Below are positions 5,536-44,650 of a stretch of 64,000 nucleotides of DNA, piece after piece. Location: IMG/VR virus record IMGVR_UViG_3300048606_000166, positions 1-64,000 of that record. One strand, given 5' to 3'. This DNA comes from a virus (taxonomy: Duplodnaviria; Caudoviricetes). How positions within the stretch are numbered: position 1 is the stretch's first letter; every line of letters starts with the position of its first letter. Both the position numbers and the translations under genes were made by a program. The notes under the pieces are model-generated. The model made no database searches. It worked only from the letters and a program-made list of their open reading frames with translations, and was not told where the DNA came from.

Positions 5536-5891
5536 GGCTCTTTCGCGCCGTCGCCCCAACGCTGCTCGTCATTTTCATCGCCGTCGTTTCGGCCCTCGCG
5601 GTCGTCAGCATCATCACGAGCTGCGATCAAAAGCCCATCCCCGTGAACGCGACCCCGGGCTACCCCTGCGGCAAAGCGGGCTACTACTTCGAATGCCACA
5701 AGGGGTGCTGCTGGCGCGGCACGCGGTGCGGCGTGCTCGGCCACGCCTGCGGCCTCGGCGAGTGCTGCTACATCGGCGACGAGTACGGCGGCGCCCCCGA
5801 TGCCGCGCGCGGCGCCGCTCGCTCCGCCGGCCACGAGCTCACGCCCGAAGAGGCCCGCCAGCGCGAGCAGCACTCGGGGGACGGCCGATGA
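5532..5891 (+). CDS. Cys-rich putative lipoprotein
   Basis: Signal-like hydrophobic stretch ending ITS-C, followed by eight more Cys. Confidence 0.65.
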   Translation: MRLFRAVAPTLLVIFIAVVSALAVVSIITSCDQKPIPVNATPGYPCGKAGYYFECHKGCCWRGTRCGVLGHACGLGECCYIGDEYGGAPDAARGAARSAGHELTPEEARQREQHSGDGR

Positions 5892-7630
5892 GCAAGCTCG
5901 CCATCGCGAACGGCGTCTCTTTGCCGCTCGACACCGTGACCCAGGCGATCGGGATTCTCGCCAAGCGACGGGCGGGTAAGAGCTACCTCGCGCGCCGCCT
6001 GGTCGAGCAGCTCCTTCGCGCTGAGCAGCAGGTGGTCATCGTCGATCCGAAGGGCGACTGGTGGGGCATTCGGTCGGCGGCCGATGGCAAAGGCCCCGGC
6101 CTGAAGGTGACCATCCTTGGCGGCGAGCATGCCGACGTCCCGCTCGAGCACACGAGCGGCGAGCTCGTCGCCCACCTGGTCGTCGAAGAGCGGGTCAGCA
6201 TCCTGCTCGACCTCTCGCTCTTCAGCAAAGCGCAGGTCGCGACGTTCATGGCCGCGTTTCTCGAGACGGTCTACCGCTTGAAGGCGCAAGAGCAGTACCG
6301 CACCCCCGTGATGCTCGTCATCGACGAAGCCGACGCGATCGCGCCGCAAAAGCCGATGAAGGGCACGTCCGAGGAACGCATGCTCGGCGCGGCCAACGAC
6401 ATCGTGCGCCGCGGCGGCCAGCGCGGCATCGGCTGCATCATGGTGACGCAGCGCTCGGCCGTTCTCAGCAAAAACGTGCTGACGCAAATCGAGCTTCTCA
6501 TCACGCTGAAGACGATCGCGCCGCAGGATCTTGCCGCCATCAACGATTGGATCGATGTCCACGGCACCAAAGAGCAGCGCGATTTGTTGATGGAGACGCT
6601 CCCAGCGCTACCCGTCGGCACGGCGTGGTTCTGGTCGCCGGCGTGGCCGACCGACAAGGGGATCTTCCAGAAGGCGGAAGTTCTGCCCATCGAGACCTTC
6701 GACTCGGGCGCGACCCCGAAACCCGGCCACAAGCAATCGAAGCCGAAGACGATGGCAGACGTCGACCTCGACGCTTTCCGAAAGCGCATGGTCGCCACGA
6801 TCGAGAAGGCAAAACAGGAAGACCCCCGCGAGCTCCGCAAGGAAATCGCGGACTTGAAGGGGCAGCTCAAGAAGCTGCAGGCGACGGCGGCGCCCCCCCC
6901 CGTCGTCGAGAGGATCGAAGTGCCCGTCCTCACCAAGGAGGATCGGACGCTCGTGTGCGACCTCGGCGCGGACATCGAAGACATCGTCGCCAAGTGGAAA
7001 AAGGCGGAGCAGATGTTGGTCGCGGCCGCGGAGAAGATGCTCAAGGGTGTCGCGAGCAGCGGCAGCGCCAACGGCATCCTCCGAGCCGATCACGTTCTAC
7101 GGTCCCGGCCGGCCACGCTGCCCAAGAAGGCGGCGGCGGCGAAGGCGCCGGCGGCCCTCGAGCCGGACGACGGCGGCGAGCTGCCGACGATGGACCGGCG
7201 GTTTCTCGTCGCCCTCGCCCAGCAACCCTGGGGCCGCACCAAAAAGCACCTGCTCGCGATCGCCGGCTACCGCGATGGCGGCGCAACGAGTCGATCGCTC
7301 TCGCGCCTGAAGCGCTTGAACCACATCGTCGTCGAGAACGACCTCTACAACATCACACATGCGGGCCTCGCCGCGCTCGGCTCCTACGAGCAGCTACCGA
7401 CCGGCGCCGCCCTCTTCGACTACTGGTCACAGAAGGTGCCCATCATGCCGCGCGCGATGCTCTGCGCGCTGCGCGAAGCGGGCCCGCTCTCGAAGCGCGA
7501 TCTGCTCGGCGTCTGCAACTACCAGGACGGCGGCGCGACGAGCCGCGCGCTCCGCCTTTTACGCGCGCTCAACCTGGTCGTGCCGCCGAAGGGCGATCCC
7601 ATCGACCTTAACCGCGAGCTCTTCGCATGA
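5888..7630 (+). CDS. HerA/FtsK-like (DUF87-type) ATPase with two C-terminal winged-helix-like repeats
   Basis: Walker A AKRRAGKS, VIVDPKGDWW, Walker B LVIDEAD, TQRSA motif; coiled linker; repeated Y.DGGATSR.L..L. Confidence 0.82.
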   Translation: MSKLAIANGVSLPLDTVTQAIGILAKRRAGKSYLARRLVEQLLRAEQQVVIVDPKGDWWGIRSAADGKGPGLKVTILGGEHADVPLEHTSGELVAHLVVEERVSILLDLSLFSKAQVATFMAAFLETVYRLKAQEQYRTPVMLVIDEADAIAPQKPMKGTSEERMLGAANDIVRRGGQRGIGCIMVTQRSAVLSKNVLTQIELLITLKTIAPQDLAAINDWIDVHGTKEQRDLLMETLPALPVGTAWFWSPAWPTDKGIFQKAEVLPIETFDSGATPKPGHKQSKPKTMADVDLDAFRKRMVATIEKAKQEDPRELRKEIADLKGQLKKLQATAAPPPVVERIEVPVLTKEDRTLVCDLGADIEDIVAKWKKAEQMLVAAAEKMLKGVASSGSANGILRADHVLRSRPATLPKKAAAAKAPAALEPDDGGELPTMDRRFLVALAQQPWGRTKKHLLAIAGYRDGGATSRSLSRLKRLNHIVVENDLYNITHAGLAALGSYEQLPTGAALFDYWSQKVPIMPRAMLCALREAGPLSKRDLLGVCNYQDGGATSRALRLLRALNLVVPPKGDPIDLNRELFA

Positions 7631-9678: not shown

Positions 9679-9920
9679 AGCCGGAGCCGAAGATGACCGC
9701 GCATGTCTTTCTCTGCGGCCGCAAGCGCCGGCCGCGCTGCACGGGCCCGGGGTGTGGCGTCGCGAGCATCACCGAATGCGCCTACGTCGTGAACCGCCCT
9801 TCGGGCAAAGGCACATGCGATCGCGCCCTCTGCCGGCACTGCGCGAGGCGCCGCCCCGAGCTCGGCCCGGACGCCTTCTACTGCGCCACGCACCACCGGA
9901 TCGCAGGGGGCCAAGCATGA
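9675..9920 (+). CDS. Small Cys/His-rich hypothetical protein
   Basis: C...C...CD..LC..CA...DAFYCATH; coupled. Confidence 0.7.
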   Translation: MKPEPKMTAHVFLCGRKRRPRCTGPGCGVASITECAYVVNRPSGKGTCDRALCRHCARRRPELGPDAFYCATHHRIAGGQA

Positions 9921-10738
9921 CCTGGCGCAACCTTCGAGAGGAGCTCTACGAGGTCCTCGCCGAGACCATCGAGGCGCGCGTCCCGCTGGGCTCGTTCCAC
10001 CCTAACCAGTCGGTCCACGTCGAGACCGGCGGCCGGACGAAGTTCGGAGCGCGTCCCGAGCGCTCGACGTGCCGAGAGTGCAAGACGATCTTCACGCAGT
10101 ATTACAAGGGCAAGATCGCGAAGTTCTGCTCGCGATCCTGCCGGCTGCGCGTGTGGAAGCGTAAGCGCATCGCCGAACTGACGCAGGAGATCCGAGCCTT
10201 TCGTGCCTCGACGACCAAGTGCCCATGCGGCAAAGCGGCTCGATCGACTGGACGCAATACCGGATCTCTGGCGACTTACTGCAGCCGGCAGTGCGGTCAG
10301 CGCCAGCGCGCGCATCGAAAGCGTTGCATTGAATGCGTCTACCGCGGAGCACGGGCGTGCAAGTTTCCGAGCCGAAAGCCACCGGCGAGTGCGTTTTGGC
10401 GAGCCGGCCGATTGAAGCTGACCGAGGCTGATCTTCACAGCGCCCGCATGATGCGCGCGGAAGGCGCGTTGGGAACGGAGATAGCGGCCCGATTCGGGAT
10501 CAGCGCGCGATATGCGCTGGTCATTACCAGGGGCTCCGCGCCCTACCGCGAAGTGCGAAAACGCAAGCCTTGGGGCAGTGGCCCGCGAGGTGCCGCCGGC
10601 GGCCTGAAGCTCACGGGGGCGCAGGTCGAAGAAGCGCGGCAATTGCGTGCCTCTGGCGCCATCCTCAAGGTCCTCGCCGCTCGTTTCGGGATCAGCGGCG
10701 CGCACGCGAGCCGCATCTGCCGGAGTTCCGACAGATGA
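9917..10738 (+). CDS. Zn-finger protein with two tandem HTH repeats
   Basis: CREC...FCSRSC and CPC...YCSRQC; two KLT...AR..RA.G......AARFGIS repeats. Confidence 0.7.
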   Translation: MTWRNLREELYEVLAETIEARVPLGSFHPNQSVHVETGGRTKFGARPERSTCRECKTIFTQYYKGKIAKFCSRSCRLRVWKRKRIAELTQEIRAFRASTTKCPCGKAARSTGRNTGSLATYCSRQCGQRQRAHRKRCIECVYRGARACKFPSRKPPASAFWRAGRLKLTEADLHSARMMRAEGALGTEIAARFGISARYALVITRGSAPYREVRKRKPWGSGPRGAAGGLKLTGAQVEEARQLRASGAILKVLAARFGISGAHASRICRSSDR

Positions 10739-11358
10739 AACGGCACAGGAAAACGAGGGTGCTCGCGCCGGCAGCACCCGACCTTTCGTCGACGGCGCGG
10801 CTCACGCCTGCGCAGCTCGACGACATTCTTGCGCTGCAACTTGCGGTTGCATGGGCCGGTGAAACCGCGGGCGATCCACCTCGACTCGGCTGGTGGAAGA
10901 CGGACCTCGTGGACAAGGAAGGGGGTGGCGATTTATGGGCGCGCCTCGTTCCGAAGAGCGCAACTTGGGCGAGCCTCGCGCTTGTGCGGATGGCGGCGCG
11001 CACGATCGACGAGAGGGCGCGCGCGAAGTCGGCGCGAGGCGACGCGATGTGGACGCCGTTCCACTGCGGGTTCGACGTGAATGAGCAGCTCGATGACCGG
11101 CTCGTCGATCACCGTCGTCACGAGGACATCCCCGCCAATGTATTCGGATCGAAGTGGTTGCTCGATCGACCCTGGAACAAGGCGGCGTTAGAGACCCTTC
11201 TGAAGGCCCTGCCCTGTTCATTCGTTGAAGTGACGCCGGCCGGCAGGTCGGTCACCGCACACGTGACCTCAGTGGTTGACGCGGCCCCGCTGCTGTTCGC
11301 CGCGCTCTTGCCGCTCGGGCCGCGGTACCCGCTTCCCTACATCGAGAGGCCCGCATGA
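10735..11358 (+). CDS. brxE: BrxE-like protein (BREX type 6 accessory), orphan
   Basis: LDDILALQLAVAWAGE...PPRLGWWKTDLVD..GGGDL.ARL.P....WASL..VR.AA...D...R and C-terminal YPLPY match BREX-6 BrxE sequences as recalled; not database-verified. Confidence 0.72.
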   Translation: MKRHRKTRVLAPAAPDLSSTARLTPAQLDDILALQLAVAWAGETAGDPPRLGWWKTDLVDKEGGGDLWARLVPKSATWASLALVRMAARTIDERARAKSARGDAMWTPFHCGFDVNEQLDDRLVDHRRHEDIPANVFGSKWLLDRPWNKAALETLLKALPCSFVEVTPAGRSVTAHVTSVVDAAPLLFAALLPLGPRYPLPYIERPA

Positions 11359-11912
11359 CGAAGGCGAAGAAGGCCGCCCGCGAGAAGACTCCGCGGGAGA
11401 TACAAATGGCTGAACTGCGGCGGAGGCGCGCGAATTGGAAGACAGGCCCCCGTGTGCCGGTCGGCACAGGACCGGGCGAGCATCCGCGCGACGCCGATGG
11501 CGGAGCGCGGATATTCGTTCGTGAGGTATTGCCTGCAAGCCCAGCGCGCTTCTGCTGGTTCTGTTTCGAGAGCGACCGGGAATTGCACGTTGCCGACATC
11601 ACTGGCGTCTGTTTCTGCAAGGAGTGCGCATCCTCGCTGTTGGAGCTCGCGACTTACTACGTGCCCGACCAGGACGAACTGATCGGGCCGCTCGTGAACG
11701 CGTGCGCGGCAGCACTGCCGATCGTCGAGGCCGGCCCCCATCCGCTGATTGCCGCCCAACTGAAGTTCGCCATTCAGCTCACGGCCGAGTGGTTCGACGG
11801 CGCTTGCCCAGAAGCCGATCCCGCATGGTCCGAGGCGGACGCAGCGGAGATGTCTCGCGAGCCGCGTCAGCCCGAATTGCCGCTTGAAGACCTGAAAGGA
11901 CCGGCGACGTGA
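11355..11912 (+). CDS. Protein with ClpX-type C4 zinc finger
   Basis: CWFC-x17-CKEC, resembling the ClpX N-terminal Zn-binding domain. Confidence 0.5.
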   Translation: MTKAKKAAREKTPREIQMAELRRRRANWKTGPRVPVGTGPGEHPRDADGGARIFVREVLPASPARFCWFCFESDRELHVADITGVCFCKECASSLLELATYYVPDQDELIGPLVNACAAALPIVEAGPHPLIAAQLKFAIQLTAEWFDGACPEADPAWSEADAAEMSREPRQPELPLEDLKGPAT

Positions 11913-13141
11913 CCGAGCTTCTACGAGCCCCATTCCCGTGGTTCGGCGGAAAGCGCCGCGTCGCCGACGTCGCGTGGCGCGCGCTCGGGGCCGATGTAGC
12001 GAACTACGTCGAGCCCTTCGCCGGCTCGTTAGCGGTGCTCCTCGGGCGGCCCGGCGGCGCCGGCAAGATCGAGACGGTCAACGACATCGACCGCTACCTC
12101 GCGAACTTCTGGCGCGCCATCCAGCACGCCCCGGGCGAGGTCGCCGAGTGGGCCGACGGCCCCGTGAACGAAGCCGACATGCACGCGCGCCACCTCTGGC
12201 TCGTCAACCAAAAGGAGTTTCGGGAGCGCATGCACACCGACCCCGACTTCTTCGATGCGAAGATCGCCGGCTGGTGGGTGTGGGGGATCTGCCAGTGGAT
12301 CGGCGGCGGCTGGTGCACGGTGCCCTGGCAGCGGAAGCGGCCACGTATGGATGCCGCCCCGGGCACTGGTGTGCACGGCAGCGGCCGCGAGCGCGCGCAT
12401 TGGCAACAGCGCCCAGCGATGACGGGCGATCATCCGGGCAACGGCGTGCACTCCGAAGCGGCCTATTCGCCAGGCCGGCGGCCCTCGCTAGGCAGCGAGG
12501 GGCAGGGTGTGCATCTAAGCCGACAGATGCCGGAGCTCCGCATTTACGGCAATGGCGACGGCGCAACCGGCAAGGGAATCCATAGCGGAGGTTTCCTGCG
12601 AAAACATGAGGCCGGCGCTCGCCTCCCCTCGCTCGGCAACGACCGCGGCATCAGCGGCGTCGCCGCCCCACCGTGCCTCGATTGGTTCCTCGCCCTGCAG
12701 GAACGCCTGCGCCGCGTGCGCGTGGCGTGCGGCGACTGGAAGCGCGTGCTCGGCCCCTCCGTGCTCGGCAAGGGCAAGAACGTCGGCGGCCGCCGGCCCT
12801 GCGGCGTCTTCCTCGATCCGCCGTACAGTCACGAGCTCCGCGACAACCACCTCTACTCGGAGGACGATGTCGGCATCGCCGAGGCGGTGCGCACCTGGGC
12901 GATCGAGCACGGCGACGATCCCGATCTGCGCATTGCCTTTTGCGGCTACGAGGACGGCCGCGAGATGCCGCCTGGCTGGACCGCCCACGCCTGGAAGGGC
13001 GCGCGCGGCTACGCCGGCCAAGACAACACAAACCGCGAGCTCGAGCGGATCTGGCTAAGCCGCCACTGCCTGCCGCTCGAGCCGGAGACAGAGCGCCAGG
13101 GTTTGCTTTTCGGGTCCGTTGTCGCCGGGGGGGCGCCATGA
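11909..13141 (+). CDS. DNA adenine methyltransferase (Dam/D12-like)
   Basis: PFPWFGGKRR, YVEPFAGS, ETVNDID, VFLDPPY. Confidence 0.9.
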   Translation: MTELLRAPFPWFGGKRRVADVAWRALGADVANYVEPFAGSLAVLLGRPGGAGKIETVNDIDRYLANFWRAIQHAPGEVAEWADGPVNEADMHARHLWLVNQKEFRERMHTDPDFFDAKIAGWWVWGICQWIGGGWCTVPWQRKRPRMDAAPGTGVHGSGRERAHWQQRPAMTGDHPGNGVHSEAAYSPGRRPSLGSEGQGVHLSRQMPELRIYGNGDGATGKGIHSGGFLRKHEAGARLPSLGNDRGISGVAAPPCLDWFLALQERLRRVRVACGDWKRVLGPSVLGKGKNVGGRRPCGVFLDPPYSHELRDNHLYSEDDVGIAEAVRTWAIEHGDDPDLRIAFCGYEDGREMPPGWTAHAWKGARGYAGQDNTNRELERIWLSRHCLPLEPETERQGLLFGSVVAGGAP

Positions 13142-13764
13142 GCTGGCACGAGGACATCTCGTTCGAGGTAGAGCTGGAGTTTCTGCGCTTCATGCCGCAC
13201 TGGGAGCGGCTCGAGGGCGCGCTCTGGTTCGCCCGCCACGCAAAGCACATCCACTGGGCCGCGTGCGGAAAGCTGTTTCGGCAGACCGCTCTAGGCCGGC
13301 AGAAAAACCGCGAGTGCACCAAGAAACGGCACGAACTCCTGAAGGCCATTCCAGATGGGTGGATCAAGTGCAAAGCGTGCGGCGACCAGTTCGAGGTAAC
13401 GGTGATGCAGCGACGGAAGGGCCGCTCGGTCTGCTCGCTCAAGTGCGCCGGCGAATTGCGTCATCGCACTGATCGCGAACCGAGCGCGCGGCGGCCGGAG
13501 ACGTCTTCGCAGAAGCAACGGCGCAACCAGGTCCGGAGCGGGCGCTATCGACAGTGTCAGGCAACACCAGACGGGCAATCCATCTGCCTAGCATGCGGCG
13601 CTTCGTTTGCCGTTAGTCTGCAGCAGCGACGCAAAGGCAACACGAAGGTCTGCGGCTACGCGTGCGCCGGCCTTCTATCGAGCCGCGTTCGAGAGACGCT
13701 CCGGTCGGCCGGACGGTGGCCGCTTGCAAAAGCCCGTAATGTGACCAGCGAGGGCTCCCAATGA
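13138..13764 (+). CDS. Zn-finger repeat protein
   Basis: CKAC...F...CSLKC and CLAC...F...CGYAC; coupled. Confidence 0.65.
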   Translation: MSWHEDISFEVELEFLRFMPHWERLEGALWFARHAKHIHWAACGKLFRQTALGRQKNRECTKKRHELLKAIPDGWIKCKACGDQFEVTVMQRRKGRSVCSLKCAGELRHRTDREPSARRPETSSQKQRRNQVRSGRYRQCQATPDGQSICLACGASFAVSLQQRRKGNTKVCGYACAGLLSSRVRETLRSAGRWPLAKARNVTSEGSQ

Positions 13765-14048
13765 GAGTCAGGCCGACGCCCTGTAAGCCGCTCCTCTCGT
13801 GGTGCGAGGACGAGGCCGCTCGAGCTCTCGAGCGGATCGTTCTTGAGCGCATTGGAAAGCCGGAAAGCAAGCACCCTCTCAACGGCGCCGAGCGGATCGA
13901 CATGAGCCACTGCGTCATTGGGTGTGGACGGTGCGGAGGCGTCCATGGCGGCGACGGAATCGTGTCGCGAGAAGGCGTCGAGAAGGGGCGCTGCCCGACG
14001 AAACGCTGCACGTGCAGTCGCAAGCAACGCGGGGGAGGCGCCACATGA
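13761..14048 (+). CDS. Hypothetical Cys-rich protein
   Basis: ATGA-coupled at both ends. Confidence 0.55.
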   Translation: MRVRPTPCKPLLSWCEDEAARALERIVLERIGKPESKHPLNGAERIDMSHCVIGCGRCGGVHGGDGIVSREGVEKGRCPTKRCTCSRKQRGGGAT

Positions 14049-14425: not shown

Positions 14426-16167
14426 TGCAGAAGCTCGGGACCATCCGCCGGATGGTCGAGCGCGCGAGCGGCAAGGCCGAGCGCGCCCTCTGGCGTGTCG
14501 AATGCTCACCCCATATCGGCCTTCGTATGCGCCGCATCTTTGGCAAGCTGACACGCGAAGACCGAGGCGTGCTCGTCCTCGGCGACAACATCGAAAACTG
14601 CCGCGATCTGGCATGGTTTTTGGACCGCTACCCACTCGGCATCAGCCCCGAAGACCGCGCCTACCTGCTCGATCGCGAGCGTGCCCACATGCTCCAGGGG
14701 GAGGACGTCGACGCCATCCTGAAGGGCCGCTACAACGGGCACGCCTTCGAGCTCGCCATCCCCGCGCGCGACTACCAGAAGCAAGCCGCGGCGATTCTCC
14801 TTCGGACCGGCGCGCTCCTTCTCGCCGACGACCTCGGCATCGGTAAGACCGTCAGCGCCATCTGTGCGCTCACCGATCCGGGCACGCGGCCCGCGCTCGT
14901 CGTCACCATGACCCACCTGCCCCGCCAGTGGGAGGGGGAGATCAAGAAGTTCGCGCCGGGCCTTCGCGTTCACTGCCTTCGCAAGGGCACGCCCTACGAC
15001 ATCTGTCGCCCGCCTCGGGTGAAGCGCTCCGATCCCGAGGAAAAATACGACGCCTTGCCCGACGTCATCATCTCGAACTACCACAAGCTCGCTGGCTGGG
15101 CGGGCGCCTTGGCCCCGATCATCAAGACCGTCATCTTCGACGAGGCGCAAGAGCTCCGACGCGTCGATAGCCTTAAATATGAGGCTGCGCAGACCATCTC
15201 GGACGGCGCCTCCTATCGGATGGGTCTCACGGCGACGCCCGTCTACAACTACGGCGGCGAGATCTTTTCGGTCCTCGACTGCATCAAGCCGGGCGCCCTT
15301 GGAACGCGCGAGGAATTCAAGCTCGAGCACTGCACCGACCATGGTAACCACCTGCTCATATCGGACCCGCGCGCCTTCGGTTCCTACATGCGCGAGGAGG
15401 GGCTGCTGCTCCGGCGCACGCGCGCGGACGTCGGCCACGAGCTCCCACCTCTTACCAAGATCCCCCACTACATCGACATCGACGGTACGCAGCTCGACTA
15501 CGCGACGCAGGGGTGCGCCGAGCTTTGCCGCTTCATCCTGTCGACCGCGAACGAAGGCCGGGGCGCGAAGATGCGCGCCGGCGGCGAGCTCGACTACAAG
15601 CTCCGGCAAGCGACCGGCATCGCCAAGGCCAAGTACGTCGCGCAGTTCTGCCAGATGCTGCTCGAGGGCGGCGAGAAGAACCTCGTGCTCTTCGGCTGGC
15701 ATCACGAGGTGTACCGGATTTGGTGCGAGTGGTTTCAGAAGCTCGGGATCTCCTTCGCGATGTACACGGGCAAAGAGCCCGCTCGAAAAAAGGAGCTGGC
15801 GAAAGCGGCCTTTCTGGCCGGCGAAGCGAAGGTGCTCGTCATGTCGCTGCGAGCGGGCGCCGGCCTCGACGGTCTCCAAGAGGTCTGCCGCACCGGCGTC
15901 ATCGGTGAGCTCGATTGGAGCCCGCAAGTCATGGACCAGGACGTCGGGCGCCTGCACCGGTTCGGGCAGGAGCAGAGCACCATCGCCTACTACCTGATTG
16001 CCGAATCGGGCAGCGATCCGGTGATCGCCGACGTGCTCGGTCTGAAGCGCTCGCAGAGCGAGCCGCTCGTCAACCCGGGCGCCGCCCTCGTCACCGAAGG
16101 CGAGGTCGATCCCGAGCGCATCACCCGCCTCGCCGAGGCGTTCATGAAACAGAGGGGGTTGCAATGA
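14425..16167 (+). CDS. SNF2-family helicase
   Basis: RDYQ, LLADDLGIGKT, IFDEAQ, LTATP, LRRTR, AGAGLDG, QDVGRLHRFGQ. Confidence 0.92.
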   Translation: MQKLGTIRRMVERASGKAERALWRVECSPHIGLRMRRIFGKLTREDRGVLVLGDNIENCRDLAWFLDRYPLGISPEDRAYLLDRERAHMLQGEDVDAILKGRYNGHAFELAIPARDYQKQAAAILLRTGALLLADDLGIGKTVSAICALTDPGTRPALVVTMTHLPRQWEGEIKKFAPGLRVHCLRKGTPYDICRPPRVKRSDPEEKYDALPDVIISNYHKLAGWAGALAPIIKTVIFDEAQELRRVDSLKYEAAQTISDGASYRMGLTATPVYNYGGEIFSVLDCIKPGALGTREEFKLEHCTDHGNHLLISDPRAFGSYMREEGLLLRRTRADVGHELPPLTKIPHYIDIDGTQLDYATQGCAELCRFILSTANEGRGAKMRAGGELDYKLRQATGIAKAKYVAQFCQMLLEGGEKNLVLFGWHHEVYRIWCEWFQKLGISFAMYTGKEPARKKELAKAAFLAGEAKVLVMSLRAGAGLDGLQEVCRTGVIGELDWSPQVMDQDVGRLHRFGQEQSTIAYYLIAESGSDPVIADVLGLKRSQSEPLVNPGAALVTEGEVDPERITRLAEAFMKQRGLQ

Positions 16168-16817
16168 GCAAACGGATTGCCAAAGACGAGAGTGCGGGCG
16201 GCAAGAACGAGAACTTCGCGACCCCCCCGTGGTGCGTCGACCGGCTTCTCGACGGCATGGTCGGTAACGAAATCCGCCTGCCCATCCAAGGGCGATGGCT
16301 CGAGCCTTCGGCCGGCACCGGCGCCATCATCGTGAGCGCAAGCGCGCGCTACCCCGCCGCGCATTGGACGGCCTGCGAGATCCGCAAGAGCTGCGAGCGC
16401 CACCTCGCCATGGCCGACGAGGTCGTGATGGGCGACTTCTTCACCACCTCGCGCCGGTTCGGCACCGGCCCCTGCCCGGGGGGCAAGTGGCCCTTTGATC
16501 TGGTCGTCATGAATCCCCCCTTCACGCTCTGCCACGACTTCGTCGTGCGCTCTCGCGAGCTCGCGCCGGTCGTGATCTGTTTGACCCGGCTCAACTGGTT
16601 CGCGAGCGCCGAGCGGCAGCCGTGGTTTCAGACGAACATGCCCGCCCAGACGCTCGTCTTACCCGACCGCCCTTCGTTCACGCGCGACGGGCGAACCGAC
16701 GGCACGGAATACTGCTGGGCGATCTGGACTCCCGGGCCGCGCCATCACACGCGGATGTCGGTCCTCGCGCTCACTTCGGTCACCGTCCGCAAGTCCTACT
16801 ACCGGTCGGCGGCATGA
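16164..16817 (+). CDS. DNA N6-adenine/N4-cytosine methyltransferase
   Basis: F.TP.W, WLEPSAGTGAI motif I, VVMNPPF motif IV. Confidence 0.88.
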   Translation: MSKRIAKDESAGGKNENFATPPWCVDRLLDGMVGNEIRLPIQGRWLEPSAGTGAIIVSASARYPAAHWTACEIRKSCERHLAMADEVVMGDFFTTSRRFGTGPCPGGKWPFDLVVMNPPFTLCHDFVVRSRELAPVVICLTRLNWFASAERQPWFQTNMPAQTLVLPDRPSFTRDGRTDGTEYCWAIWTPGPRHHTRMSVLALTSVTVRKSYYRSAA

Positions 16818-20515: not shown

Positions 20516-20530
20516 CCGTCACCCCGTTTG

Positions 20531-20602
20531 AGGCGCGGATGGGATTCGAACCCACGTTGGACGGTTTTGCAAACCGTTGCCTAGCCACTTGGCGACCGCG
20601 CC
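20531..20602 (-). tRNA. tRNA-Cys (GCA), CCA not encoded
   Basis: GGCGCGG/CCGCGCC acceptor stem, ACGGT-TTGCAAA-ACCGT anticodon arm, GGTTCGAATCC T-loop, U73. Confidence 0.92.
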
Positions 20603-20610
20603 AAAAACTG

Positions 20611-20682
20611 CTCCGGTGCGAGGGCTCGAACCTCGGACCCGGCGGTTAACAGCCGCCTGCTCTACCACTGAGCTACACCGGA
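20611..20682 (-). tRNA. tRNA-Asn (GTT), CCA not encoded
   Basis: TCCGGTG/CACCGGA acceptor stem, GGCGG-CTGTTAA-CCGCC anticodon arm, GGTTCGAGCC T-loop, G73. Confidence 0.93.
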
Positions 20683-44518: not shown

Positions 44519-44576
44519 TGGTGCGGCTAAGCGCCCACAACTCCGGCCGGTTGCGAATGTGAGAGACTTTCCTTAG

Positions 44577-44647
44577 GGCACGTTGGAGCAGCGGCAGCTC
44601 ATCGGGCTCGTACCCCGAAGGCGGTGGTTCGAATCCATCACGTGCCC
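44577..44647 (+). tRNA. Atypical tRNA, anticodon CGT (Thr), initiator-like arms
   Basis: Acceptor GGCACGT/ACGTGCC, D-stem GAGC/GCTC, anticodon arm TCGGG-CTCGTAC-CCCGA, T-arm GGTGG-TTCGAAT-CCATC; no CCA. Confidence 0.8.
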
Positions 44648-44650
44648 TTT

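Follow-up and report, generated by a model that had tools for sequence, protein, structure and literature searches.

Orphan cas genes carried by viruses act as anti-CRISPRs, either through the formation of defective complexes or through the sequestration of crRNA (Katz et al., 10.1101/2023.06.24.545427). Factors that counteract BREX are also known, namely the DNA mimic Ocr of T7 (PMC7261183), the SAM lyase of T3, an enzyme that depletes the cofactor (10.1101/2023.02.27.530186), and OrbA of ICP1, a small inhibitor directed at BrxC (10.1101/2024.05.09.593382); as described, none of them is homologous to a BREX component. A phage-encoded antitoxin mimic that counters DarTG has also been reported (10.1101/2023.12.14.571748). 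BrxE itself is listed with "unknown function" in the published BREX classification, where it is placed in type 6 only (PMC12839542), and the original prediction, which had assigned it to types 5 and 6, has to be corrected on this point. In the literature searched, BrxE is mentioned in passing in the context of BREX, bacterial defence and microbial genomics, and no phage-borne BrxE is described.

The locus considered here is a brxE homologue encoding a protein of 207 aa (P0001; positions 10735-11358, plus strand) and located on a stretch of 64,000 nucleotides, hereafter the window, that makes up the first 64 kb of a linear viral contig in IMG/VR (83,868 bp), the completeness of which was estimated at 82% by CheckV. 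The record belongs to a bona fide tailed phage, with genes for the large terminase, portal, a major capsid-type protein, tail sheath, tape measure and baseplate J, and the likely hosts are myxobacteria of the family Polyangiaceae. The phage also encodes three tRNAs (Cys-GCA, Asn-GTT and Thr-CGT), at 20530-20682 (minus strand) and 44576-44648 (plus strand) of the window.

The orphan viral cas genes are the closest analogy, since in both cases a single host-derived subunit of a multi-protein defence is found on a virus that lacks the remaining components, and by this analogy the phage BrxE would act through a defective complex or through sequestration. Unlike viral cas, the phage gene concerns BREX, which has no RNA guide, its activity is putative, and no anti-defence island was recognised around it; searches with Pfam, PHROG and PADLOC profiles detected no recognised anti-defence marker or family beside brxE. 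With Ocr, the T3 SAM lyase and OrbA the phage protein would share the BREX target and the logic of early expression, whereas it differs from all three in being itself homologous to a BREX component. The antitoxin mimic resembles the phage BrxE in being a phage-borne copy or imitation of the modulatory component of a host system, a parallel that requires BrxE to modulate BREX negatively. The earlier suggestion of a new counter-defence strategy was overstated: a virus carrying one host defence subunit is a known kind of arrangement, from cas and from the antitoxin mimic, and for BREX it would be new. A fixed slot after one phage gene and a probable double capture from hosts are additional observations. 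If the anti-BREX role is true, the principle by which viruses turn a stolen defence subunit against the defence itself would extend from CRISPR-Cas to BREX.

Identity, fold and selection of the phage protein

The brxE reading frame opens with an ATG at 10735, spans 207 codons and closes with a stop codon ending at 11358; a GGAG lies about 10 nt 5' of the start, and ATGA overlaps of start and stop codons join the gene to its neighbours at both ends (9917-10738 upstream and 11355-11912 downstream). The coupled frame of 207 residues had been proposed at these positions as a BrxE homologue, and its coordinates were confirmed, while the recurrent coupling to the upstream Zn-ribbon/HTH gene had been missed. 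The NCBIfam model NF033448 (BREX_6_BrxE) matched the protein over profile positions 3-181 of 182 with an E-value of 1.2e-49 and a score of 168.6 bits, where the curated cut-off is 80 bits; NF033447 (BrxE_fam) gave 112.6 bits (cut-off 40 bits), the PADLOC BrxE model 5.8e-45 over positions 2-194 of 197, and the precomputed Pfam family is PF26412. These profile matches identify the frame as a true full-length BrxE.

All 27 columns that are invariant in the family (alignment A1, 23 sequences) are kept in the phage protein, as are the family blocks LALQ..AWAGE, RLGWW.TDL.D..GGGD and the C-terminal YP.P; the motifs on which the homology had originally been recognised are all present, in the form ALQLAVAWAGE, RLGWWKTDLVDKEGGGD and YPLPY. 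At columns that the host clade conserves, only seven substitutions are specific to the phage lineage (F68W, T75S, R90T, V91I, V143L, G160P and P162S), most of them conservative, and the comparison of conserved columns with the host clade revealed no obvious crippling change of the sort that would mark a dominant negative.

The AF2 model built on the family alignment (pLDDT 85.4, pTM 0.81) is mostly helical with a small sheet and a floppy GGG loop, and the predicted fold is the same as that of BREX-linked BrxE. Foldseek searches of the model against PDB and BFVD returned no match at E ≤ 0.001, the ESM Atlas offered no usable neighbour, PDB sequence searches with BrxE and BrxA-like profiles found nothing, and hhalign showed no relation of BrxE to the BrxA-like and BrxB profiles. 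The top row of a wide VIA-align search (Z 4.3, residues 70-392 of Salmonella PglX) lies below the noise level of the tool. Ranks 1, 2, 7 and 44 of that search (model m10d33ea3762b) were N-terminal regions of the gamma-class adenine methylases PglX, two HsdM and MmeI, all with Z ≤ 4.3, and the likeness probably reflects a common helical arrangement. The possibility that BrxE mimics the PglX N-domain was dropped, as a Z of 4.3 is noise and hhalign against BREX-6 PglX N-termini gave a probability of 0.3%.

The phage protein has a basic N-terminal extension of 20 codons (MKRHRKTR...; 10735-10794, plus strand) that the 189-aa host BrxE lacks in alignment A1, with a pI of 11.7 for the first 20 residues vs. 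6.5 for the core. Its DNA is identical to that of contig L002 at 61 of 63 nt, and no start codon is present at the host-equivalent position of the phage gene. In the AF2 model its first two blocks of ten residues have pLDDT values of 71 and 61, below the core. The extension is common to the phage protein and its twin of 87% identity (P0002), and among the other mobile-element copies P0101 and P0067 have a comparable basic head, which is absent in P0108.

Compared with the L002 copy, which is 87% identical, the phage brxE has a dN/dS of 0.17, a value indicating that the gene is maintained by purifying selection. This bears on the reading of brxE as a functionless passenger brought in by illegitimate recombination, which could draw on the mosaic nature of phage early regions and on the existence of decayed BREX loci with brxE fusions (P0130). 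Apart from the selection estimate, at least four diverged lineages carry the gene as an intact, coupled frame, every invariant BrxE residue is kept, and we disfavour the passenger reading as highly improbable.

Linkage in bacteria and origin of the phage copies

A scan of bacterial genomes, limited to one genome per species, returned 80 brxE loci. In all 77 with enough downstream flank, brxE is followed by a brxA-like gene (about 270 aa, in the BrxA position), brxB and brxC, and pglX comes next wherever the flank extends that far; two of the 80 loci end inside brxE and are uninformative on linkage. Only one locus departs from this pattern, a 5.8-kb contig from a Polyangiaceae MAG (L008 and L004 both denote it), whose copy is 87% identical to the phage gene. 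In the closest host locus (L005), PglX reaches 1879 bits with NF033455, the model for BREX-6 PglX, and pglZ is the next gene. Bacterial BrxE is strictly BREX-linked, heading a BREX operon in every informative locus; never being free-standing in bacteria, the protein has the BREX complex as its only known world. BREX-6 is also common in the likely host family, with BrxE above the curated cut-off in 37 of the 201 Polyangiaceae species genomes sampled, and the weak partial BrxE-like matches in the same sample also head BREX loci in the four out of four cases inspected.

Very divergent BrxE-like genes, matched over only the N-terminal ~100 profile positions with E-values of 1e-5 to 1e-9, are found in Polyangiaceae genomes G002, G045, G084 and G055 (L093-L096). 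They head other BREX loci, in which BrxB and BrxC are 26-33% identical to those of BREX-6, so that the BrxE family seems, from these sequences, to be wider than type 6. Two metagenomic fusions were also encountered. In P0130, a decayed locus, BrxE is fused in frame to residues 372 to the end of a BREX-6 PglX after a deletion that removed brxA, brxB and brxC, and P0131 joins BrxE to a BrxA-like protein, with 520 aa in total; each is a singleton, and the two were set aside as weak functional clues.

On the phage, by contrast with the BREX-6 protein that heads a BREX operon, brxE is an orphan coupled to phage genes, with the basic extension and a long branch, although it resembles the BrxE of Sorangium spp. 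and Polyangiaceae MAGs in full-length homology, invariant residues and predicted fold. It heads no operon of brxA-like, brxB, brxC, pglX (BREX_6_MTaseX) and pglZ, the arrangement that a working BREX-6 component would have. The absence of brxA, brxB, brxC, pglX and pglZ, first stated for the window, extends to the whole 83,868-bp record: profile searches of the record found no PglZ or BrxC, and tblastn queries with the BrxA-like, BrxB, BrxC, PglX and PglZ proteins encoded in the closest host locus had no match below an E-value of 0.3.

The phage protein is homologous to the BREX-linked copies over its full length at 53-68% identity, the closest of them being P0003 (68%). In the maximum likelihood tree it groups with its twin of 87% identity and the mobile-element copy P0067/L098 (support 97/93), inside a clade of 17 rows (98/85) made up of BrxE proteins encoded on metagenome and MAG contigs of Polyangiaceae type, whose members with a checked context (P0003 and L023) head BREX-6 loci. 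This clade is in turn nested in a Polyangiaceae clade of 46 rows (99/97), elsewhere in which branches a second mobile-element pair, P0101 and P0108/L097. The nesting of the phage BrxE inside the Polyangiaceae BREX-6 clade indicates transfer from host to phage, with one origin or two, in line with the capture that had been proposed. As with the viral cas genes, a homologue of a host defence subunit thus stands orphaned on a virus and nested in a host clade.

The phylogeny favours two separate captures of host alleles: the best trees need two origins and a single origin appeared in 0 bootstrap trees, although a tree constrained to a single origin of all phage-context BrxE, 26.6 lnL units worse, is not rejected (p-AU 0.13). 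The branches of the phage-context copies are long in both clades (0.5-0.68 vs. a median of 0.19), and the phage BrxE is fast-evolving yet under purifying selection. Such branches are consistent with an arms-race gene, and are not proof of one. No further viral BrxE was recovered by tblastn against INPHARED, by protein-pattern scans of IMG/VR or by a degenerate DNA-motif scan, with the window's own record lying outside the outputs of these scans.

Partners of brxE on mobile elements

The gene coupled upstream (9917-10738, plus strand) encodes a protein of 273 aa with Zn-ribbon-like repeats of Cys pairs and two HTH motifs of the resolvase type, which gave weak matches to HTH_7 and to PHROG HTH/HNH-region families; its dN/dS against the L002 copy is 0.22. 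This Zn/HTH gene and brxE form a two-gene cassette of 1.45 kb (9917-11359, plus strand) that is shared with Polyangiaceae-MAG and metagenome contigs (L002-L004) at 86.3% nucleotide identity over 1452 nt (blastn), and the similarity stops at the gene borders. The DNA flanking the cassette in these contigs is otherwise unrelated, save for one block of 73% nucleotide identity at 13135-14020 (plus strand; L002:4066-4914), which comprises the gene of a Cys-pair-repeat protein of 208 aa and the first part of the gene that follows. The block lies upstream of the cassette in L002 and downstream of it in the phage, which shows mosaic reshuffling.

A Zn/HTH homologue stands directly 5' of brxE, with overlapping stop and start codons, in L002-L004 (86% aa identity), L098 (47%) and L097 (46%), and the contig of P0101 appears to share the arrangement. 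Zn/HTH homologues are found in phage-like contigs carrying terminase, DnaB or integrases, and in five further lineages (L089, L090, L091, L099 and the P0124 contig; 38-71% identity) the gene is followed by unrelated small genes in place of brxE. Since closely related phages bear the Zn/HTH gene without brxE, brxE is an accessory phage gene, and on mobile elements it occupied this one slot in every context that could be inspected. Downstream, the coupled gene at 11355-11912 (plus strand) encodes a Zn-finger-like protein of 185 aa with a weak RING-type match, a homologue of which (54% identical) holds the same place after brxE in L097, while in L089 the homologue is upstream of the Zn/HTH gene. 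brxE has thus been retained across lineages whose flanking genes are 46-54% identical.

Such constancy could mean that BrxE and the Zn-ribbon/HTH protein, perhaps together with the Zn-finger protein, act on the phage's own DNA transactions, for instance by regulating the neighbouring methylases and replication genes or by excluding competing phages, and that host BREX is not the target. The Zn/HTH protein would then stand in for the DNA-binding BrxA, the neighbour of BrxE in BREX-6. The overlap of the two genes in every inspectable phage context across a range of 46-86% identity, with P0101 looking alike, fits this explanation, and so do the preserved order of the trio in L097, the similar coupling of brxE in BREX-6 to the next gene, which encodes the BrxA-position protein, and the fused BrxE and BrxA-like frame of P0131. 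However, the Zn/HTH gene occurs more often in the absence of brxE than beside it and therefore does not need BrxE, BrxE has never been seen apart from BREX outside the mobile-element copies, and the favoured double acquisition of host alleles fits the tracking of a host system better than phage housekeeping. Overall, we regard a role confined to the phage's own DNA as the main rival explanation, though a rather unlikely one. The phage DNA-binding protein whose gene is repeatedly coupled to brxE is a candidate BrxE partner and as such a second handle on the system.

Genomic setting and proposed action

brxE sits in a long co-directional array of early/replication-type genes, in which stops and starts overlap, within a phage that has a replication/recombination block with DnaB, a HerA-like ATPase, an SNF2 helicase and Mre11/Rad50-like proteins. 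The gene adjoins two methyltransferases and occupies a variable accessory slot 3' of a conserved gene. No consensus sigma-70-type promoter was found from ~4.5 to 17.7 kb of the window, and terminator-like sites on either strand of the same region were not more frequent than in shuffled sequence. The position beside replication genes and two phage adenine methylases agrees with the original prediction, with the second methylase kept as putative.

The first of these is a D12-class (Dam-like) N6-adenine DNA methyltransferase of 410 aa (11909-13141, plus strand; Pfam PF02086, 5.5e-9; phrog_56 DNA methyltransferase, 1.2e-19; PADLOC MTase_II), encoded two genes 3' of brxE and directly after the 185-aa gene. 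Its match to D12 models is limited to the first ~80 of the 410 residues and its DPPY motif lies near the C-terminus, with a long Gly/Arg-rich insert that has no match between the two halves. The second, of 217 aa (16164-16817, plus strand), is a putative adenine methyltransferase with SAM-binding-like and NPPF motifs in its translation and weak PADLOC MTase_II/oMTase matches (~1e-5); it had no Pfam or NCBIfam match.

The location of brxE among DNA-methylation genes would also suit a Ral-like hijack, in which native BrxE biases BREX-6 towards modification and an extra supply of it leads the host PglX to methylate phage DNA as it enters or replicates, yielding BREX-proof progeny. That all conserved residues are kept under purifying selection suggests a native activity that was retained and not lost, and BREX methylation and restriction need overlapping but distinct protein subsets (PMC13326643). 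Against this, the weak structural resemblance of BrxE to PglX, the one to the PglX/HsdM N-terminal region at Z 4.3, is below noise and has no profile support, and we consider such a hijack improbable.

The explanation that we prefer is that the phage brxE is a co-opted defence subunit interfering with host BREX-6. Apart from the mobile-element copies, the protein is known only from BREX-6, the likely hosts often bear BREX-6, the phage copy is host-derived, intact and accessory, and its setting is that of an early gene, and on these grounds our confidence in the interference reading is evenly balanced. A myxophage lineage would have taken a BREX type 6 allele from Polyangiaceae hosts and kept it as an accessory early gene, produced early in infection alongside the replication and DNA-modification genes. 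With its conserved core intact, the phage BrxE may take the place of host BrxE in the BREX-6 machinery and either poison the complex as a mismatched subunit or act as an over-supply of native, possibly modulatory, BrxE activity; under either option restriction of unmethylated phage DNA would fail, and the two phage adenine methylases may act in parallel against other restriction systems. Both the binding to BREX-6 components and the inhibition of BREX are steps that we infer. A co-fold of host BrxA-like and host BrxB with the phage BrxE had a score of 0.00, which counts neither for nor against binding. Counting against interference with BREX-6, an extra BrxE copy may harm the system or may help it, and no PglZ or second BrxE was found in the sole Polyangiaceae MAG with a phage-type cassette, a MAG that may be incomplete. 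The lack of an obvious crippling change in the phage protein, the lack of a recognised anti-defence marker beside the gene and its constant coupling to a phage DNA-binding protein also speak against this reading.

A more specific and tentative proposal is that myxophages repeatedly acquire host brxE into the slot after one DNA-binding gene, and thereby switch BREX-6 off or to a methylation-only mode. If this were true, BrxE would be a regulatory, mode-setting subunit of BREX-6, and its phage copy the first anti-BREX factor derived from BREX itself. A BrxE kept by phages under selection is a natural experiment on the role of the protein in the BREX complex.

The HerA/FtsK-type ATPase encoded at 5888-7630 (plus strand), which carries two C-terminal winged-helix-like repeats, was matched best among the PADLOC models by mad8 of the MADS system (5e-19), with the HerA models ranking lower; a related family is labelled "terminase large subunit" in PHROGs, but the true large terminase is at L092:10558-11967. 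The segment 14030-16167 (plus strand) encodes a protein of 131 aa (phrog_5928, of unknown function, 3e-23) directly 5' of the SNF2-family helicase, whose top PADLOC matches are the DpdE and ZorD helicase domains.
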